64,000 nucleotides of DNA from the IMG/VR virus record IMGVR_UViG_3300009703_000010, positions 1 through 64,000 of that record, one strand, 5' to 3'. Made by a program: the position numbers and the translations under genes. Origin of the DNA: a virus. Positions 30,708-62,165 of the stretch are shown here, piece after piece; within the stretch, counting starts at the first letter, position 1, and each line of letters opens with the position of its first letter. A model generated the notes under the pieces. The model was not told the origin of the DNA. It searched no databases and saw nothing but the letters and a program-made list of their open reading frames with translations.

Positions 30708-30793
30708 GGGCTATTTAGCGCCCCGTAGGCGCGAGAGAATGGGTCAGATGGGGATTTACCCCATCTCTGATAGAAACGGGCTTAGAATGCGGG
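30708..30793 (+). repeat. dispersed intergenic repeat, copy D (core TGATAG at 30768-30773)
   Basis: Hairpin GCGCC-CCGTA-GGCGC, then GAGAGAATGG, hairpin GATGGGG-ATTTA-CCCCATC, then TCTGATAGAAAC. It is collinear with copy A. Confidence 0.7.
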
Positions 30794-32830: not shown

Positions 32831-32852
32831 GTAATCCTCGACCCCTTGACAG

Positions 32853-41562: not shown

Positions 41563-41652
41563 TTAACGCCCGTTTAAGCGGCCATAGCCGCGAGAGAATG
41601 GATTGGGGGTGTAAATCCCCCACCTGACAGAAAGCACCCGCTATGCGCAGGC
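41563..41652 (+). repeat. dispersed intergenic repeat, copy A (core TGACAG at 41625-41630)
   Basis: TTAACGCCCGTTTAAG, then hairpin GCGGC-CATA-GCCGC, GAGAGAATGG, hairpin GGGGG-TGTAAAT-CCCCC, then ACCTGACAGAAAGC. Confidence 0.7.
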
Positions 41653-51994: not shown

Positions 51995-54076
51995 ATGGAT
52001 GAGGACTCGGCGGCAATTGAGGTGATACAATCTCCCGACAGCACAATACGATACACAGCGATTGTTGAAGAGCGAGAAGCAAGTCTCGTCTTCGTTTCCG
52101 CCGCCAAAGGCCGCATGGATTTCAGTATTGCATTGGATGGCACTCCTCACGGAAAGTTCAATCTCCTCTCTCAGCACTCAATCCAACGGCTCCTGAAGGC
52201 CGCTGGCATCCCCTTAGATGAGCAAAAGGATTCGGCGACGGGGTTCTTGACTGTTGGAGAGTTGTTGCGGGATGGCAATTATACACCGGCTCCCGCACCA
52301 ACAGCAGCAACACCCACGTATACAGGTAAGGCATCCAGTTTTGGGCCCATTGACGATACTGTGATTGGAGATTTTCTCACTTCTCTGGATCTACTTGACC
52401 GAGTAAATGATATTCTACACCATTCCCGGTTGATCCCCTTTCGGGGCGATGATGCTGGATTGGTCATGAACTTCTTGGTTATCCTTTCATGTAAGTCGGG
52501 GACTCCACTCAATCTCGAATTGATCGGTCCATCAGCAGCAGGAAAAACCCATCTCGCTTTGACTGCCCGCAATGGGTTCCCGAAGAATATGGTAATGGTC
52601 TTGGCCGGCGCGAGCCGTGAGGCTCTCAAGTATGACTACGATGAGGTTGATGGTCAGGGTAATTATCTCGTCCATGTTGGAGGAAAGTGTATCATCGTGC
52701 TGGAGAAGGATGAGTCTTCAGCGTTTGTTCAACGGCTCAAGCCCTTGATGTCCGGCGATGATGATGAGTTAGTGTTCAAGACCCCGATCAAGAATGAGGT
52801 CACCGGTGAAATCGAGACTCGGGATTTCAAGATCATCGGACAACCATCATTTGTTACGCTCACAACCCGCAACCCGAAGGAGTGGGAACAGGTGACTCGG
52901 CAATTGTTGATGACGCCGGACTCATCGCCGAAGAAGGTAAGGGGTGTTGTTGATGGTATTCTCACCGCGAAGGCTCGACCCGAAGACCTATCGCTGCACC
53001 TTGATTTGGATCTCATGCAGGCTGCGATGGGTTCAATCCCCCTGCGCGAAGTCCGCAACATATGGGCTCCGCTCATGACATCCTTCTTTCCGAACACCAA
53101 TGCTTCTCACCAACGCAATGTCACAAAGGTAGTGGGAATAGTGGATGCACTAACCGTGCTTCACCATGAGCAACGTCCGACCCAAACCATCGGCGACCGA
53201 TCATTCGTGATGTCTACAATCGAAGACAATATCATCGGGTTGATTCTCGCTGACAAAGTGATGCGAGCAAGTCTCAGCGGGGTGCCCGATGATACATGGA
53301 CGGTATTCTTGCACATGGCGGATTTGGAGGATACAGGCAAGGCACTCACTGAAGACACCGTCCTGCAATACCTACATCTCCACTCCGTGCAAATGAGTCG
53401 CAAGGCATTACGTGAAAAGCACATCGATACTTTGATGGAATCGGGGTTGTTAGAGGTGGCTCGACGAGGCGGCGGTCGTGGCGGACAGCGCAAGGCGTTC
53501 CGGACGGTTCGAACACAACAGCATCTAATGGAACAGCACGCGCTGACGCCCCTATTCCTCGATGCAGTTCGAGATCAATTGGAAACCACTCTCACCGAGT
53601 TCATGGATATTATCGAATTGTCGGATCCGCCAATTTCACCCCGCCAGCCAACCCGAAGCGAGCGTGACTTGCTTGATAGTTTGCTTGGATCTGCTGCGAC
53701 GCCGGAACTCAAGAAGGTGCTCGGGACATTGGTGCTCCCCCAATACACTCGCAGATCAAACAAACACAATGTGGTTTGGATGATGATGGATGATACACCA
53801 TCCCGAAAACACCTCTTCGGCAATCGTTGTGCTTGGCTACCCGGTTCTAAGACAATGGGGGCAACAAAGGAGCATGAGAAGCGCAAGGCGGGCATTGCAG
53901 CAGCACGCAATGCTATCGCGGTTAATACAGGCTCAGAAGCATTACCGGATGATCTATTGGAGACAATGGCGACCGGGCACCTTGAAGCATTACAGGCAGG
54001 ACCGGGCACCAGTGATACGGGACGTCGTCGGAAACGAAAGCGGACCAAGAAGAAGGAGAAGGGCAATACTGAATGA
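51995..54076 (+). CDS. P-loop NTPase, putative replication initiator/helicase (SF3-like)
   Basis: It is 693 aa with Walker A GPSAAGKTH, Walker B IIVLEKDE and a basic C-terminal tail. It is the first gene of the replication block. Confidence 0.45.
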   Translation: MDEDSAAIEVIQSPDSTIRYTAIVEEREASLVFVSAAKGRMDFSIALDGTPHGKFNLLSQHSIQRLLKAAGIPLDEQKDSATGFLTVGELLRDGNYTPAPAPTAATPTYTGKASSFGPIDDTVIGDFLTSLDLLDRVNDILHHSRLIPFRGDDAGLVMNFLVILSCKSGTPLNLELIGPSAAGKTHLALTARNGFPKNMVMVLAGASREALKYDYDEVDGQGNYLVHVGGKCIIVLEKDESSAFVQRLKPLMSGDDDELVFKTPIKNEVTGEIETRDFKIIGQPSFVTLTTRNPKEWEQVTRQLLMTPDSSPKKVRGVVDGILTAKARPEDLSLHLDLDLMQAAMGSIPLREVRNIWAPLMTSFFPNTNASHQRNVTKVVGIVDALTVLHHEQRPTQTIGDRSFVMSTIEDNIIGLILADKVMRASLSGVPDDTWTVFLHMADLEDTGKALTEDTVLQYLHLHSVQMSRKALREKHIDTLMESGLLEVARRGGGRGGQRKAFRTVRTQQHLMEQHALTPLFLDAVRDQLETTLTEFMDIIELSDPPISPRQPTRSERDLLDSLLGSAATPELKKVLGTLVLPQYTRRSNKHNVVWMMMDDTPSRKHLFGNRCAWLPGSKTMGATKEHEKRKAGIAAARNAIAVNTGSEALPDDLLETMATGHLEALQAGPGTSDTGRRRKRKRTKKKEKGNTE

Positions 54077-54165
54077 TTGTGAATCAATAGCCTCTCCACT
54101 TTTGCTGCTTTTCCTCACAGCATGCGACCTCAAGCGGCTTTCCGGAGTTGGCGGTTACCGTCATG

Positions 54166-54317
54166 TGAGGCCGGTGGGATTTGCGCCCACTAAGACCAAA
54201 GAATGTGAAATGAGGAATAGGATAAGGTGATTCTGAGGGGTGGCCGCCGGGAGTTGGAACCCGGAGATGCTTACTGTTGGATCATGATACACCGTTTTTC
54301 AGGACTCGCACCGGCCT
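54166..54317 (-). ncRNA. tRNA-like element 1 (about 150 nt): 7-bp acceptor-like stem plus T-arm-like hairpin, non-canonical interior
   Basis: On the minus strand, GGCCGGT (54310-16) pairs with ACCGGCC (54169-75). The T-arm-like hairpin is GTGGG-CGCAAAT-CCCAC (54174-90), and an internal hairpin CCGGG-TTCCAACT-CCCGG lies at 54247-64. No D or anticodon arm was found by eye. Confidence 0.35.
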
Positions 54318-54394
54318 AATTCACAGGCGGGTTGCATGCCCGTTAACCCTGCTTCAAGCCACCCATGCCGGACATACCGGACATAGAGATTGAT

Positions 54395-54498
54395 TCGGGG
54401 ATGGGACTCGCACCCACTCGCTGCATCGCCTTCTACCAATACTCGGGACCCTCACCTTGCGGCGGTCACCCCTTCGAGATGCTTCATTGATTCCCCGC
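54395..54498 (-). ncRNA. tRNA-like element 2 (about 104 nt): acceptor-like stem, D-loop-like string and T-arm-like hairpin
   Basis: On the minus strand, CGGGGA pairs with TCCCCG. It also carries GAGTATTGGTAGAAGGCG (D-loop-like) and GTGGG-TGCGAGT-CCCAT (54401-17). No anticodon arm lies at the canonical distance. Confidence 0.35.
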
Positions 54499-54531
54499 TA
54501 AGGTTCACTCTACATCCATCTACCCCCCTCG

Positions 54532-54599
54532 AGGGGCGGTGGGATTTGAACCCACTCTTCCGATACACTCTCTGAATACTGATTAGGACTCGCGCCCCA
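54532..54599 (-). ncRNA. tRNA-like element 3 (about 68 nt): 6-bp acceptor-like stem plus a perfect T-arm
   Basis: On the minus strand, GGGGCG pairs with CGCCCC. The T-arm GTGGG-TTCAAAT-CCCAC lies at 54539-55. The interior is about 5 nt too short and has no anticodon stem. Confidence 0.4.
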
Positions 54600-54622
54600 T
54601 CAGGTCTCCCTTTGAAATAATT

Positions 54623-54700
54623 GATTGTGGTTTAGTAAACCCTGAGAATTGGAACTCGTTACCGCCTGTTGGTGCTATCAGGATAGGCGACCCCACAATC
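54623..54700. other. 78-nt segment closed by an 8-bp stem (GATTGTGG/CCACAATC), a structured-RNA candidate
   Basis: Direct reading. Internal hairpins GGTTT-AGT-AAACC and GAG-AATTGGAA-CTC are present, but it does not fold as a cloverleaf in either orientation. Confidence 0.3.
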
Positions 54701-54937
54701 CAAGACAGTTATTCTGATCCGGTAATCTGGATCCTCCGATTTTCAACGCGCCTGCTCTTGGACTATGAGGTTCAGTTCCCCACGTTCAAATGTTGCCCGC
54801 CGGTTAAACCGACACCTCGAGCCACGCTCGGGTAATTTGTCCGACCCCATGTGTCCTCATATACTTTCTGTCAGGAAGAGTATCCCCGCATAGTGAATTA
54901 CACCGTCTTCATAGGGGTGGGGGTAGAAGGCACTGTT

Positions 54938-56317
54938 ATGGCGAAGAAAAAGACTACGACCGGCTTGCCCAAAATTGCGGCACAAAGACTTGCACCCTAC
55001 ATCGAACGTGGAAAACAGAAAGGGCTGTGGAATGATGATTCCACTGTTCTTGACCTTTTCAATGAAAAGGCGGGGGATCAAACCCTGAAGTCCACCGTTG
55101 AAGAACTCGGCGGACTCAAGAGCGATATTGCGGTTCAATTTATCGCTGACGCCGTCTTGGTTGATCTGACCGACATCCTCCGCCGCACCCCCTATGATAC
55201 ACAAATTGAGGTGTGGGAGGTTAGCCACACTATCATTCCATCCACAGGGAGACCTGCTTGCTTTGTTTCCGGTGCAGCCACTGTATCGGATGAACAGGGC
55301 ACAATGGAACCCGCCATGTTCACAATGTCGCTGTGGGATAACGACGCTGCGCTCGGAGATGATCTTGAGAGGGATGGCGTGTATGGAGTAAACCTAACCT
55401 GCAAAGATCTGGACCGGGATGTTCTGATTCTTGAACCCATCAGTGGCCTCACCAAGTTCGAGCGCGGATCCGGAAAGTTCGGCAACCGTGCCGATCTCTT
55501 GCGTGAGTCCTTCGACATCACACCGATTGCCGAACTCGAGGACAACATCTCGAGAGGGCTGTTCGATTTCAGACTCGTCGAAGCAACCGTTGTCTTCGCT
55601 GGCGTCCAGCCCACAAAGGCCGGCGGACAATTCGGCCGCATTATGCTCAGAGATGATTCGGGGCTCGCCAATATCGAAGAAGAAGAAGGCGAATTGGTTC
55701 TTACAGGCATTACCTCCACCGATATCGCAACCCGCTTCGGCAAGTATTCGAAAATCCTTGCGCTCATGACTTGCCAAGAGAGTGCCAAGTATGGATTGAA
55801 TTGCAATGTGAAGGCTGCTGAAGCAGTTATTCTCGTTGCGCCGGCCACCGCCACCAAAGCCGCTGCAAGTGGAGATGATGATGGAGATGATGCTTCCAAT
55901 TACTTCGCAGGCGATGATGAAGAGATTCCTGAAGTCAGCCTCGAAGACGAGGAAGAAGACGAGGAAGAAGAAATTGACACCGATGCAGACCCCGAAGGGG
56001 TTGTTGAAGAAGTCGAGGATGAAGAAGAACCGGATGATACACCTCTAACCGATACCGCCGATGATGATGATGATTGGGTGGATGATGATGATGGTTGGGA
56101 TGATGATGACGATAAGGCCGCGGACGAACCTAAAGAGGCAAGCCACCCGGACGAATCCGATTCACCCCCGACCATGACTATCGCAGAAGCAAAGAAAATG
56201 TCGGTTGCGAACCTCCGTGCATACTGCCGCGAGAATAAAGTGGAAGTCGATGATCTCGGCCATGCTCGCAAGGGCGAGATTCTTGACGCACTTGATGATG
56301 CGAACCTTTTGGAGTGA
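54938..56317 (+). CDS. putative ssDNA-binding (OB-fold) protein with a long acidic tail and a C-terminal SAP/HeH motif
   Basis: It is trimmed to MAKKKTTTG. It has a D/E-rich segment of about 80 aa followed by MTIAEAKKMSVANLRAYCRENKVEVDDLGHARKGEILDAL. It precedes the recombinase-like ATPase. Confidence 0.4.
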   Translation: MAKKKTTTGLPKIAAQRLAPYIERGKQKGLWNDDSTVLDLFNEKAGDQTLKSTVEELGGLKSDIAVQFIADAVLVDLTDILRRTPYDTQIEVWEVSHTIIPSTGRPACFVSGAATVSDEQGTMEPAMFTMSLWDNDAALGDDLERDGVYGVNLTCKDLDRDVLILEPISGLTKFERGSGKFGNRADLLRESFDITPIAELEDNISRGLFDFRLVEATVVFAGVQPTKAGGQFGRIMLRDDSGLANIEEEEGELVLTGITSTDIATRFGKYSKILALMTCQESAKYGLNCNVKAAEAVILVAPATATKAAASGDDDGDDASNYFAGDDEEIPEVSLEDEEEDEEEEIDTDADPEGVVEEVEDEEEPDDTPLTDTADDDDDWVDDDDGWDDDDDKAADEPKEASHPDESDSPPTMTIAEAKKMSVANLRAYCRENKVEVDDLGHARKGEILDALDDANLLE

Positions 56318-59485: not shown

Positions 59486-59600
59486 GTTTAACGCCCGTTA
59501 ACGCCCCATAGGCCGCGTCTAACCTCCTTTGCCCCCCCAATCCCCACGAGGGTGCCAAATGGCCGTATACGCGCGGCATAGGCTCCGCACTCTAATCTAC
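59486..59600 (+). repeat. dispersed intergenic repeat, copy F (rearranged)
   Basis: GTTTAACGCCCGTTAACGCCCCATAGGCCGCG aligns with the start of copy A. GGCCGTATACGCGCGGCATAGGCTCCGC aligns with copies C and E. Confidence 0.55.
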
Positions 59601-61003: not shown

Positions 61004-61244
61004 TGGCGACCTATATGATCCAAAGGCCGGTAAATTAGATGTCCCCGGAGCCGAAGAAGCACTTGGTATTGACGAATCAAGCCGCGAATATCTCCGGCAT
61101 GTTGCACTGATACGAATCATACAGCAGCGACTTGATATCACCGAAGCAGAAGTTGACCAACAATATGAGGAAGAACTCAAGCAACAGTTACGGGACGCGC
61201 GAGACTCCATTGAATCCCTCGTGAGGGGGGGTTTGGATGAGTGA
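60996..61244 (+). CDS. hypothetical acidic helical protein
   Basis: It is an 82-aa ORF that overlaps both neighbours by 8 nt. Confidence 0.45.
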   Translation: MTNGDLYDPKAGKLDVPGAEEALGIDESSREYLRHVALIRIIQQRLDITEAEVDQQYEEELKQQLRDARDSIESLVRGGLDE

Positions 61245-61707
61245 TACGAGAAAGCGATACGTCACTTGGACAGAATTATTTAACCGGTGCAGGTTGCTTG
61301 CAGAGCAAATCCACGAGAATGGTGAGCCCGTTCATCTCACAGCGATTGCACGAGGCGGCTGGGTTCCTGCACGGTTGATCGGTGGGTATCTCGAGGCACA
61401 GGGAATCCGCGTCAGTTACAGCACTATCCACGTTCATTCATATGATGATTCAAACCAACAGAAGGCGGTGACCATCACTGAACCTCAAATCTATGAGCCA
61501 CCACATAGTGAACAGTGGTGGCTCATAGATGATTTGGTTGATAGTGGAAATACCGTTGAAGCACTTCTGACAGAAATATACAGAACCCCTCGTCTTGCTG
61601 TTGTGTTCTACAAAACCGAATCATCAGTTACTCCTGAATTGTATGCTGAAATGACCGCCGCTGATGAGTGGATTGTATTCCCCTATGAGACGGAGGCACG
61701 TGAATGA
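61237..61707 (+). CDS. gpt: xanthine-guanine phosphoribosyltransferase-like protein
   Basis: YVTWTEL..., IARGGWVPARL, SYD..NQQ and the PRPP-binding motif WLIDDLVDSGNT are collinear with E. coli Gpt as I recall it. Confidence 0.7.
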   Translation: MSDTRKRYVTWTELFNRCRLLAEQIHENGEPVHLTAIARGGWVPARLIGGYLEAQGIRVSYSTIHVHSYDDSNQQKAVTITEPQIYEPPHSEQWWLIDDLVDSGNTVEALLTEIYRTPRLAVVFYKTESSVTPELYAEMTAADEWIVFPYETEARE

Positions 61708-62165
61708 GACTGAGCCCTAATTTCTTTTCAACCAAGACCTACGGTCATGAAAGGGGTTTATCCTGCGCATTCAGACAATGGAAAGCGGATAGCCACTGCA
61801 ATCTACTACACGGCTATTCCCTCTCATTCTCATTCACCTTTGGTGGATATGTTCTCGATGAAACGAATTGGGTTGTCGACTTTGGTGACCTGAAGCCGTT
61901 GGAGCAATGGTTGAGAGATAACTTCGACCATACAACAGCAGTCGCATACACTGACCCGCACTACGGCATGTTCACCGAGATGTCTGAAAAGGGACTCATC
62001 GATATGGTTCCTGTCGCGGCAACCGGGTGCGAGATGTTTGCATTGATGGCATTCGACTTCGCCACCGATTTGATCGCTAAGAAGTATGGTGAGCGATGCT
62101 GGGTCGAGAGTGTTGAAGTTCGTGAGCACGGCGCAAATAGTGCCATCGTCAAGAGGTTGGACTGA
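61704..62165 (+). CDS. queD: 6-carboxytetrahydropterin synthase (QueD/PTPS family)
   Basis: It contains TYGHERGLSCAFRQW..SHCNLLHGYSL..VVDFGDLK..FDHT. Note HGY where the E. coli enzyme has HGH. Confidence 0.7.
   Translation: MRLSPNFFSTKTYGHERGLSCAFRQWKADSHCNLLHGYSLSFSFTFGGYVLDETNWVVDFGDLKPLEQWLRDNFDHTTAVAYTDPHYGMFTEMSEKGLIDMVPVAATGCEMFALMAFDFATDLIAKKYGERCWVESVEVREHGANSAIVKRLD

Follow-up and report, generated by a model that had tools for sequence, protein, structure and literature searches.

The window analysed here is the whole 64,000-nucleotide (nt) stretch formed by positions 1 to 64,000 of IMG/VR virus record IMGVR_UViG_3300009703_000010, and it represents most of an ~81-kb tailed-phage contig that is present in two assemblies. 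Near its end lies a block of 861 nt without sizeable open reading frames (ORFs), positions 54077–54937, which probably encodes, on its minus strand, a cluster of exchangeable cassettes built from parts of transfer RNA (tRNA); we interpret these cassettes as tRNA mimics rather than as decoding tRNAs. With much less confidence do we assign a function to them, as this is suggested by analogy to other tRNA-like RNAs. The structural interpretation is anchored in the cassette that we refer to as module 1, the parts of which are as follows.

54084–54194, minus strand: module 1, the putative tRNA-mimic cassette, consisting of T arm, acceptor-like hairpin, 2-nt linker, D-arm-like hairpin and tail
54174–54190, minus strand: T-arm-like hairpin GTGGG-CGCAAAT-CCCAC, the T arm of module 1
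54125–54173, minus strand: extended acceptor-like (AS) hairpin of 49 nt, which abuts the T arm directly
54103–54122, minus strand: D-arm-like hairpin with a stem of 6 base pairs (bp), three of them changed on both sides, and the 8-nt loop GAGGAAAA, which includes GG

Module 1 is a covarying minus-strand RNA fold. Its T arm (GTGGGCGCAAATCCCAC) and the ~85 nt downstream can be aligned without gaps to the related loci L095/L096 and to L102 (identical to L112), a phage contig that is otherwise unrelated, having nothing else in common with the window over 6 kb. While the T arm is identical in all three lineages, the 8-bp stem of the AS hairpin, which begins at the nucleotide following the T arm, occurs in three versions (CGGCCUCA/UGAGGUCG, GCACCCGA/UCGGGUGU and CGAGCCGA/UCGGUUCG). 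Beyond this stem, the hairpin contains two internal loops, stems of 4 bp and 3 bp and a 7-nt loop, CYAACYC; 8 of the 15 pairs in the AS helices are changed on both sides, with every cell of the alignment paired. The linker CA, the D-like hairpin with an invariant closing U.G pair and the loop GRGGAWAR, and the conserved tail AAAAGUG..GGC complete the module. Overall, all 104 cells of the 26 pairs are standard and 11 of the 26 pairs are changed on both sides, a covariation score that none of 500 shuffles equalled; when the register was slid, only 34–52% of the positions paired. Furthermore, module 1 contains two invariant U.G pairs and three further G.U pairs, which assign the RNA to the minus strand because the opposite strand would turn them into A.C mismatches. 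Model R1 scores module 1 at 127 bits.

A preliminary description of this DNA had closed module 1 by a long-range GGCCGGT/ACCGGCC helix, a pairing that was also picked up by our repeat search. The comparison contradicts this closure: the 3' strand that follows the T arm pairs downstream instead, in the 8-bp helix described above, of which six of the eight pairs vary with pairing retained, five of them on both sides. In each lineage, the strands that flank module 1 are able to close the junction, and the closing helices are non-homologous among lineages. That of L095/L096 comprises 9 bp, and where one contig has CU and the other UC, a G.U/G-C exchange keeps the helix intact. In none of the lineages is the D-like hairpin succeeded by a conserved anticodon arm. 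We also considered a dimeric-tRNA artefact as the source of the T-AS-D signal and rejected it, as the 33-nt 'spacer' has covarying helices of its own and no anticodon arm comes after it.

All hairpins and repeats that the preliminary description had listed are present where it had placed them. In addition to the elements of module 1, these include:

54401–54417, minus strand: T-arm-like hairpin GTGGG-TGCGAGT-CCCAT (T arm 2)
54539–54555, minus strand: T-arm-like hairpin GTGGG-TTCAAAT-CCCAC (T arm 3)
54302 and 54586: GGYGCGAGTCC strings, T-loop-like
54247–54264, minus strand: 8-nt-loop hairpin CCGGG-TTCCAACT-CCCGG (RNA loop UUCCAACU)
~54644–54657: second 8-nt-loop hairpin
54327–54343: hairpin, as listed in the preliminary description
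54368: two tandem copies of CCGGACATA
54623–54700, minus strand: 78-nt cloverleaf-shaped segment with an 8-bp closing stem, three arms and the T-like loop TTCCAATT, specific to the window

The repeat search united the three T-arm modules in a single 23-nt family and the GGACTCGCRCC strings in a 12-nt family. The T-arm-like motif is clustered more than expected by chance: an exact search of the 64-kb window with GGGYKCRARTCCC gives three matches, every one of which falls within the block and on the minus strand. When up to one mismatch is allowed, the matches number eight (four in the block) against 1.24 expected, and none of 100 shuffles reached eight.

A comparable RNA block was found only in the closest lineage (77–82% amino acid identity), designated P0002. 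We rebuilt the block of this relative from L096 and L122, which stem from the same sample and were joined at a putative 3-nt overlap; at ~851 nt, it is of nearly the same length as that in the window. Four segments are shared with the P0002 lineage.

54930–54813: 72% identity
54611–54570: 86% identity (to L096)
54555–54351: 78% identity (to L075/L122)
54190–54090: 74% identity

The last ~30 nt of L075 (7786–7815) differ from L122 (2700–2729) and L123, the remainder being identical, which is explained by strain variation or else by an artefact of assembly; this difference turns one long-range helix pair from G.U in L122 into A-U in L075, the window having G-C.

In the flanking genes of the same two lineages, only 37–39% of the four-fold degenerate sites are identical, while coding sequence overall is 70–72% identical. 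Neutral sequence is thus saturated, and the cassettes, at 74–86% identity, are therefore either subject to purifying selection or the result of recent exchange. This conservation also argues against neutral tRNA pseudogenes, one of the explanations offered initially, and against the idea that the block is decayed sequence without counterpart in relatives. The conserved cassettes are non-coding, because tblastx favours no single frame, several of them scoring equally, and the lengths of the indels are not divisible by three, and a hidden protein gene was rejected on the same grounds. Among the initial explanations, that of a new structured RNA, or of minus-strand tRNA mimics, is the one supported, given conservation far beyond neutral expectation, covariation, invariant U.G pairs and a swap of tetraloops (GCAA/UUCG) in the core of the block. 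The elements of this core are as follows.

54351–54611, minus strand: conserved core cassette, comprising hairpin d, T arm 3, AS3, a central stretch, the tetraloop hairpin and T arm 2
54579–54603, minus strand: hairpin d, with the stem CTGAT/ATCAG and a 15-nt loop that includes the T-loop-like GGGGCGCGAGTCC; conserved in L096
54523–54537, minus strand: AS3, the GC hairpin GCCCC-TCGA-GGGGG, one nt after T arm 3
54447–54467, minus strand: tetraloop hairpin GACCGCC-GCAA-GGTGAGGGTC

In the tetraloop hairpin, the GNRA tetraloop GCAA of the window is replaced by UUCG in the relative on an unchanged stem (CGCC-GCAA-GGUG versus CGCC-UUCG-GGUG), which points to an RNA on the minus strand because GCAA and UUCG are stable tetraloops only on that strand. 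T arm 3 differs in the relative by one A-to-G change that converts U-A to U.G, thus keeping the pair, and the counterpart of AS3, ACCCCCG-CCAA-CGGGGGT, has retained and lengthened its stem while its loop has been replaced. Model R1 matches T arm 3 together with its hairpin (54483–54559) at 16 bits (E=0.014). T arm 2 is likewise conserved, reading ATGGG-TGCGAAT-CCCAT in the relative, and its 3' strand could alternatively pair with a conserved downstream ATGGG (54356–54360). Outside the core, the 8-nt-loop hairpin at 54247–54264 corresponds to GTGGG-TTCCGACT-CCCAC (RNA loop UUCCGACU), with double changes at two pairs of the stem and the loop kept. The closures that the preliminary description had proposed for the second and third modules are doubtful: that of module 2 carries an uncompensated C-to-A change in the relative, and that of module 3 is rivalled by a local hairpin, which has 7 bp in the relative. 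We also rejected a long-range pairing of 54236–54256 with 54453–54473, as it is not conserved in the relative. No homologue of the 78-nt segment at 54623–54700 was found.

The order of the cassettes differs between lineages. Module 1 is located at the 3' end of the block in the window, 5' of the core in the relative, and is solitary in L102; in the relative, it is placed near where the window has the unique stretch 54612–54812, which contains the 78-nt segment and is, like 54206–54350, lineage-specific. The order hairpin d, T arm 3, AS3, core, T arm 2, on the other hand, is the same in both lineages. This common order could also be expected of one large multi-domain minus-strand RNA of ~750 nt, in which the T-loop-like hairpins would serve as tertiary-contact modules, much as T-loops make tertiary contacts in RNase P RNA or riboswitches. 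Consistent with such an RNA, the cassettes are contiguous and lack recognisable internal promoters or terminators, the blocks of the two lineages are of near-equal length (861 versus ~851 nt), and long-range helices are predicted, such as that between 54561–54567 and 54422–54428. Nonetheless, we consider a single large RNA unlikely: module 1 precedes the core in one lineage, follows it in the other and is found alone in L102, much of the block is lineage-specific, the folding z-score of the whole block is only −1.4, and neither GOLLD, ROOL, ribozymes, riboswitches nor any other Rfam family matches the block or its relatives. Folding z-scores range overall from −2.05 (54623–54700) to +0.7; the lower folding energy of the minus strand is uninformative because it is compositional, shuffles showing the same. 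A twister ribozyme, to which AAAAGTGGAG and UAAC..GCC..AA bear a likeness, was considered and rejected, the P2 pairing not being conserved and no Rfam family matching.

The ancestry of the cassettes may be traced in part to tRNA genes. The 17-nt T arm of module 1 is also the T arm of real phage tRNAs in L104, L108, L110 and L111, identified as tRNA-Cys, tRNA-Arg and tRNA-Met by ARAGORN, with one identified by Rfam. This T arm and its 3' strand additionally close a cloverleaf located upstream of them in L095/L096, for which ARAGORN makes a tRNA-Gly(GCC) call only when relaxed to -ps90. The acceptor stem of the cloverleaf is a perfect 7 bp, its D arm is a small hairpin without GG, its anticodon loop is GGGCCAA without U33, and it is not among the Rfam matches at E<=10. 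The tRNA-Gly-like 5' half has been lost from the window. In several modules, three strands could form either of two mutually exclusive acceptor helices, as in L096 (CGGGTGC ... GCACCCG ... CGGGTGT), in module 3 of the window (GGGGCG ... CGCCCC ... GGGGGG) and at the 3' end of L075 (GTCGGGT, CCCGA ... GCCCGAT). These alternative pairings may constitute a switch or be the footprint of cassette origin.

Phage tRNA clusters turn over fast, and the T arm shared with real tRNAs, the tRNA-Gly(GCC) call and the loss of its 5' half might suggest that the block is the remnant of a decaying tRNA cluster, with the similarity to the relative resulting from recent ancestry or transfer. Several observations make this rather improbable. 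Synonymous sites are saturated while the cassettes are not, the extended AS hairpin covaries although it is a helix that no tRNA has, the tetraloop swap suggests selection on RNA structure, and module 1 has been maintained in an otherwise unrelated phage contig. Moreover, even the 'tRNA-Gly' of the relative has neither U33 nor GG in its D loop and is missing from the Rfam matches at E<=10.

Pattern scans of sequence collections, which relied on exact patterns and may have missed diverged members, recovered for module 1 only L102/L112 and the already known relative; core patterns had no match, and the 18-mer GAGTGAACCTTAGCGGGG yielded chance matches in coding sequence only. The T arm GTGGGCGCAAATCCCAC also occurs, unchanged, in other viral contigs, in stretches that are neither tRNA genes nor Rfam matches (L100 5395–5468, L101 8330–8429, L099 5861–5961 and L106 105–121); in L101, the T arm is followed by a hairpin and then by a hairpin with a GAGGGGAA loop and AAGTGG, an arrangement reminiscent of module 1. 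A motif of ~45 nt, CTCCACTGGAGCATGGGGTGTACCAGTATATGAACACTCGCACTA, flanks module 1 on both sides in L102 (449–515 and 724–790), where the contig holds at least four copies, and several copies are found in L112; it may be a phage promoter. Within the window, a dispersed intergenic repeat, TTAACGCCCGTT..CCATAGCCGCGAGAGAATGG followed by a GC hairpin, is located on the plus strand at 30718–30777, 41563–41634 and 59488–59517. One of its hairpins is T-arm-like (TGGGGG-TGTAAAT-CCCCCA), but the repeat does not belong to the module-1 family, because R1 scores it at only 9.7 bits.

The block and its two flanking genes are arranged as follows.

51995–54076, plus strand: gene for a 693-amino-acid (aa) protein, immediate upstream neighbour of the block
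54077–54937, no strand assigned: the ORF-free block of 861 nt, between the two genes
54938–56317, plus strand: gene for a 459-aa protein, immediate downstream neighbour of the block

The longest ORF inside the block, considering all frames, encodes 61 aa, in agreement with the 750-bp ORF-free block described initially. Its initial placement between replication genes is reasonable, a helicase and a PD-(D/E)XK nuclease being encoded nearby; the two direct neighbours belong to no recognisable family. Homologues of the 693-aa protein number more than 100 in metagenomes. The phage further encodes a family B DNA polymerase and the structural proteins of a tailed phage (HK97-type capsid, portal, terminase and tape-measure protein), and DNA and protein searches against 50,697 GenBank phage records returned zero matches, so that no cultured relative was found. 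The scan for protein families covered the ORFs of the window apart from two of ~1,460 and ~1,500 aa and some short ORFs, and precomputed Pfam hits cover the ~81-kb contig as far as 73.9 kb.

The block is an insertion specific to its lineage and occupies a hot spot for accessory genes, as the flanking genes abut in most relatives and the contents of the slot between them vary. In ~65 of the 72 viral loci (~50% identity), namely those with both genes in view, the two genes are adjacent, 30–200 bp apart. The occupancy of the slot is listed here by lineage, together with the identity of the 693-aa protein to that of the window; loci that bear on this junction include L075, L076, L122, L123, L097, L080 and L081.

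P0002 lineage, 77%: Dam and ~540 nt of non-coding sequence
P0003, 73%: empty
P0004, 69%: empty
P0005, 68%: empty
P0006, 69%: small minus-strand ORF
P0007, 60%: empty
P0010, 59%: empty
Locus L097, found via the 459-aa protein: Mom-family gene

The same hot spot thus hosts DNA-modification genes (Dam, Mom family) in relatives. As an observation on the same phage, the window (61237–62165) and the sequence beyond it (L119 11808–14674) encode a complete preQ0 pathway (FolE, QueD/PTPS, QueE, QueC) and a phosphoribosyltransferase-family gene, which suggests 7-deazaguanine modification of the phage DNA.

The location in a replication and recombination module near the helicase and the PD-(D/E)XK nuclease, the repeated 12-nt and 23-nt motifs, and the fact that the site is a recombination hot spot would each be compatible with an element that acts as DNA. 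Such an element could be an origin of replication, a site of single-strand initiation, or a group of sites for attachment or recombination in which the 3' halves of tRNAs are copied. We regard this as highly unlikely. The block is absent in ~65 relatives with both flanks in view, whereas an origin would be conserved, and the tolerance of G.U but not A.C pairs indicates an RNA made from one strand. Attachment sites resembling attP, which the preliminary description had mentioned, are likewise not supported: no integrase or recombinase family was found in the ORFs scanned, and the one internal pattern of module 1 that was used had only five chance matches in 185,579 representative bacterial genomes, a scan that did not extend to comparing the 3' halves with host tRNA genes.

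The block is without working tRNA genes. ARAGORN detected no tRNA or transfer-messenger RNA (tmRNA) genes, permuted forms of the latter included, in the window or in 72 related loci, and Rfam 15 yielded nothing at the gathering threshold for the window, its sub-regions or the relatives. At E<=10, Rfam yields dispersed matches attributable to chance, none of them to a tmRNA family, and the only one from the tRNA clan is tRNA-Sec, at 16 bits and E=5.3, on module 3. When ARAGORN was relaxed to -ps80, 2 of 45 calls in the window fell into the block, which corresponds to the background rate, with no enrichment over coding sequence. A canonical tRNA, that is, a cloverleaf at standard spacing recognised by ARAGORN or RF00005, is therefore not encoded, consistent with the initial observation that D arm and anticodon arm are not found at canonical spacing; nor do the standard tools call ordinary tRNAs that would reduce the block to a routine viral tRNA cluster. 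Intron-containing tRNAs fare no better: the intron mode of ARAGORN produced a single call, tRNA-Thr(GGT) at 54531–54753 with a 130-nt 'intron', in which the arms are mispaired, two D-arm pairs are real and the variable region consists of 24 unstructured nt, and no group I intron family matches the window in Rfam, bulge-helix-bulge motifs lying outside this search. The suggestion of intron-containing or archaeal-type tRNAs is consequently not supported, an anticodon arm being conserved nowhere. That the block encodes true unconventional tRNAs, circularly permuted or intron-bearing, which mature to decode, is hardly credible, even though the elements of module 1 follow one another as in a permuted tRNA gene (T arm, then acceptor 3' strand, linker and acceptor 5' strand, then D arm) and the intron-mode call exists, since no anticodon arm is conserved behind the D-like hairpin, that call is poor, the T loops are without U55, no RtcB-type ligase was found among the scanned ORFs and Pfam hits, group I introns are not matched, and we know of no splicing-endonuclease pathway in bacteria.

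Among known RNAs, the arm order of module 1 is most readily compared with that of YrlA, a bacterial Y RNA the tRNA-like domain of which consists of a T stem-loop, an acceptor-like stem-loop and a D stem-loop, while the outer strands form a stem in place of the anticodon arm (Chen et al. 2014, PMC4201824). YrlA adjoins Ro60 genes in bacteria and mycobacteriophages, and that of M. smegmatis is cleaved by RNase P and receives CCA, a cut that is permitted by its acceptor-like stem of 7–8 bp, 7 bp in this species (PMC4201824). Module 1, and only this module, has the same order of T, acceptor-like and D elements inside a possible closing stem, its acceptor-like stem is within this length range, and both RNAs occur in phages as well as in bacteria. 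However, the motif GNCGAAN0-1G, which in YrlA lies near the 5' end and is the presumed contact of Ro60/Rsr, is absent from both strands of 54077–54937, and no TROVE/Ro60 gene is among the ORFs scanned, which cover 74 of 81 kb, while such a gene lies within ~4 kb and on the same strand in the case of YrlA. Furthermore, the T loop of module 1 is CGCAAAU instead of the near-invariant UUCGAAU, the D-like stem has 6 bp, and the acceptor-like arm is a conserved hairpin of 49 nt. No Y RNA family is among the Rfam matches, although we did not verify whether Rfam holds a YrlA model. We therefore rejected membership in the YrlA family, as the topology fits but the Ro60-binding motif, a Ro60 gene in the scanned ORFs and canonical loops are missing; module 1 is at least shaped like the tRNA-like domain of YrlA without being YrlA.

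Other systems resemble the block in part. Phage tRNA clusters, which may embed small stable RNAs such as the species 1 and 2 RNAs of T4, are likewise arrays of short tRNA-like RNA genes in a variable region with modular turnover, and share an identical T arm, but the members of the block fail tRNA detection, lack anticodon arms and have permuted arms. Similar to two-piece tmRNA, module 1 presents a T arm and the acceptor 3' strand first and the acceptor 5' strand with a D-loop analogue later; unlike tmRNA, the block has neither a tag reading frame nor a series of pseudoknots, and its unit is ~105 nt. The mascRNA of MALAT1 and the TMERs of MHV68 are tRNA-shaped substrates of RNase P or RNase Z and not decoders, and thus provide a precedent for the non-decoding use that we propose for the modules, but they are eukaryotic or herpesviral and have canonical arm order. 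We found no description of such phage cassettes in the literature.

Assuming that the mimic interpretation is correct, minus-strand transcripts of the inserted cluster would fold into modules that mimic tRNA. In its topology, module 1 corresponds to a tRNA that is open where the anticodon stem would be and sealed by a loop at its acceptor end. The minihelix of T arm and acceptor-like stem, along with an elbow formed by the T loop and the GG-containing loop, may be read by RNase P, modification enzymes and other tRNA-binding proteins; the site at which RNase P cuts M. smegmatis YrlA would be equivalent to one in module 1. The modules might serve the phage as decoys, tethers or processing signals, and a role in counter-defence is possible because relatives hold Dam and Mom in the same slot. 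In a more specific form, to which we subscribe only tentatively and which we rate as clearly short of probable, module 1 and its neighbours would be undescribed mimics that are independent of Ro60, circularly permuted and mobile as cassettes between phage genomes. Placed in an anti-restriction hot spot, they would act as counter-defence decoys against host systems directed at tRNAs, or as hijackers of RNase P or other tRNA enzymes. They would contain a switch based, in several modules, on the strand that follows the T arm, which could pair upstream, in a cloverleaf-like fold, or downstream, in the T-AS-D fold.

Several points weigh against the interpretation as a cluster of tRNA mimics. The T loops are non-canonical, four of five having G for U at position 55, and the D-like stem has 6 bp. 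Folding energies are ordinary, the core having a z-score of +0.6 and module 1 one of −1.0. The covariation test of the core, which is based on two sequences, is weak, with four double changes and a score that 25 of 500 shuffles reach; the fold of the core is uncertain because it is found in two lineages only, and the predicted structure shifts with the alignment used. The family is rare, module 1 being known from three lineages and the core from two, and the viral, metagenome and genome pattern scans added one lineage. No convincing minus-strand promoter or terminator was detected in the block. The proposed function as decoy or tether is drawn from analogy and gene neighbourhood, and no phage protein partner is evident among the scanned ORFs and Pfam hits.

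At the edge of the block that adjoins the 459-aa gene, two features belong to the plus strand or have no assigned strand.

54816–54832, no strand assigned: conserved hairpin at the block edge; terminator pattern matches are on the plus strand
54837–54937, plus strand: promoter-like site and 5' leader of the 459-aa gene, outside the RNA cassettes

The edge hairpin, the loop-closing pair of which is C-G in the window and U-A in L095, may be a terminator-like site of the plus strand. A sigma-70-like site is located at 54837–54865 on the plus strand, and the leader region is 72% identical to L095/L096. The promoter-like repeat ACCCCTTGACAnnTAATAAAnnnnnCTGnCA occurs on the plus strand at 32841, 37848, 51916 and 54844, in each case upstream of plus-strand genes, and the last copy immediately precedes the gene for the 459-aa protein. 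Also on the plus strand, 54516–54527 and 54428–54437 are complementary to GGGGGTAGAAGGC (54919–54931), just upstream of the start codon of this gene; upon read-through on the plus strand, these sites could mask the ribosome-binding region of the gene. At the other end of the window, positions 1–105 consist of seven tandem copies of the 15-nt unit AAGGCGATGATGGCG, probably a coding repeat that runs past the window edge.

The non-coding RNAs of phages are poorly charted, and tRNA mimicry is a recurrent route to the host machinery that handles tRNAs; blocks rich in T arms, such as the one described here, can slip past tRNA finders unannotated. In this phage, the arm order of YrlA is seen without Ro60, in a slot where relatives keep DNA-modification genes. 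If they are expressed, the cassettes would represent a new RNA family without an Rfam match and would be candidate substrates or decoys of RNase P, and they would give access to the question of how tRNA genes are reused by phages as RNAs for regulation or counter-defence.

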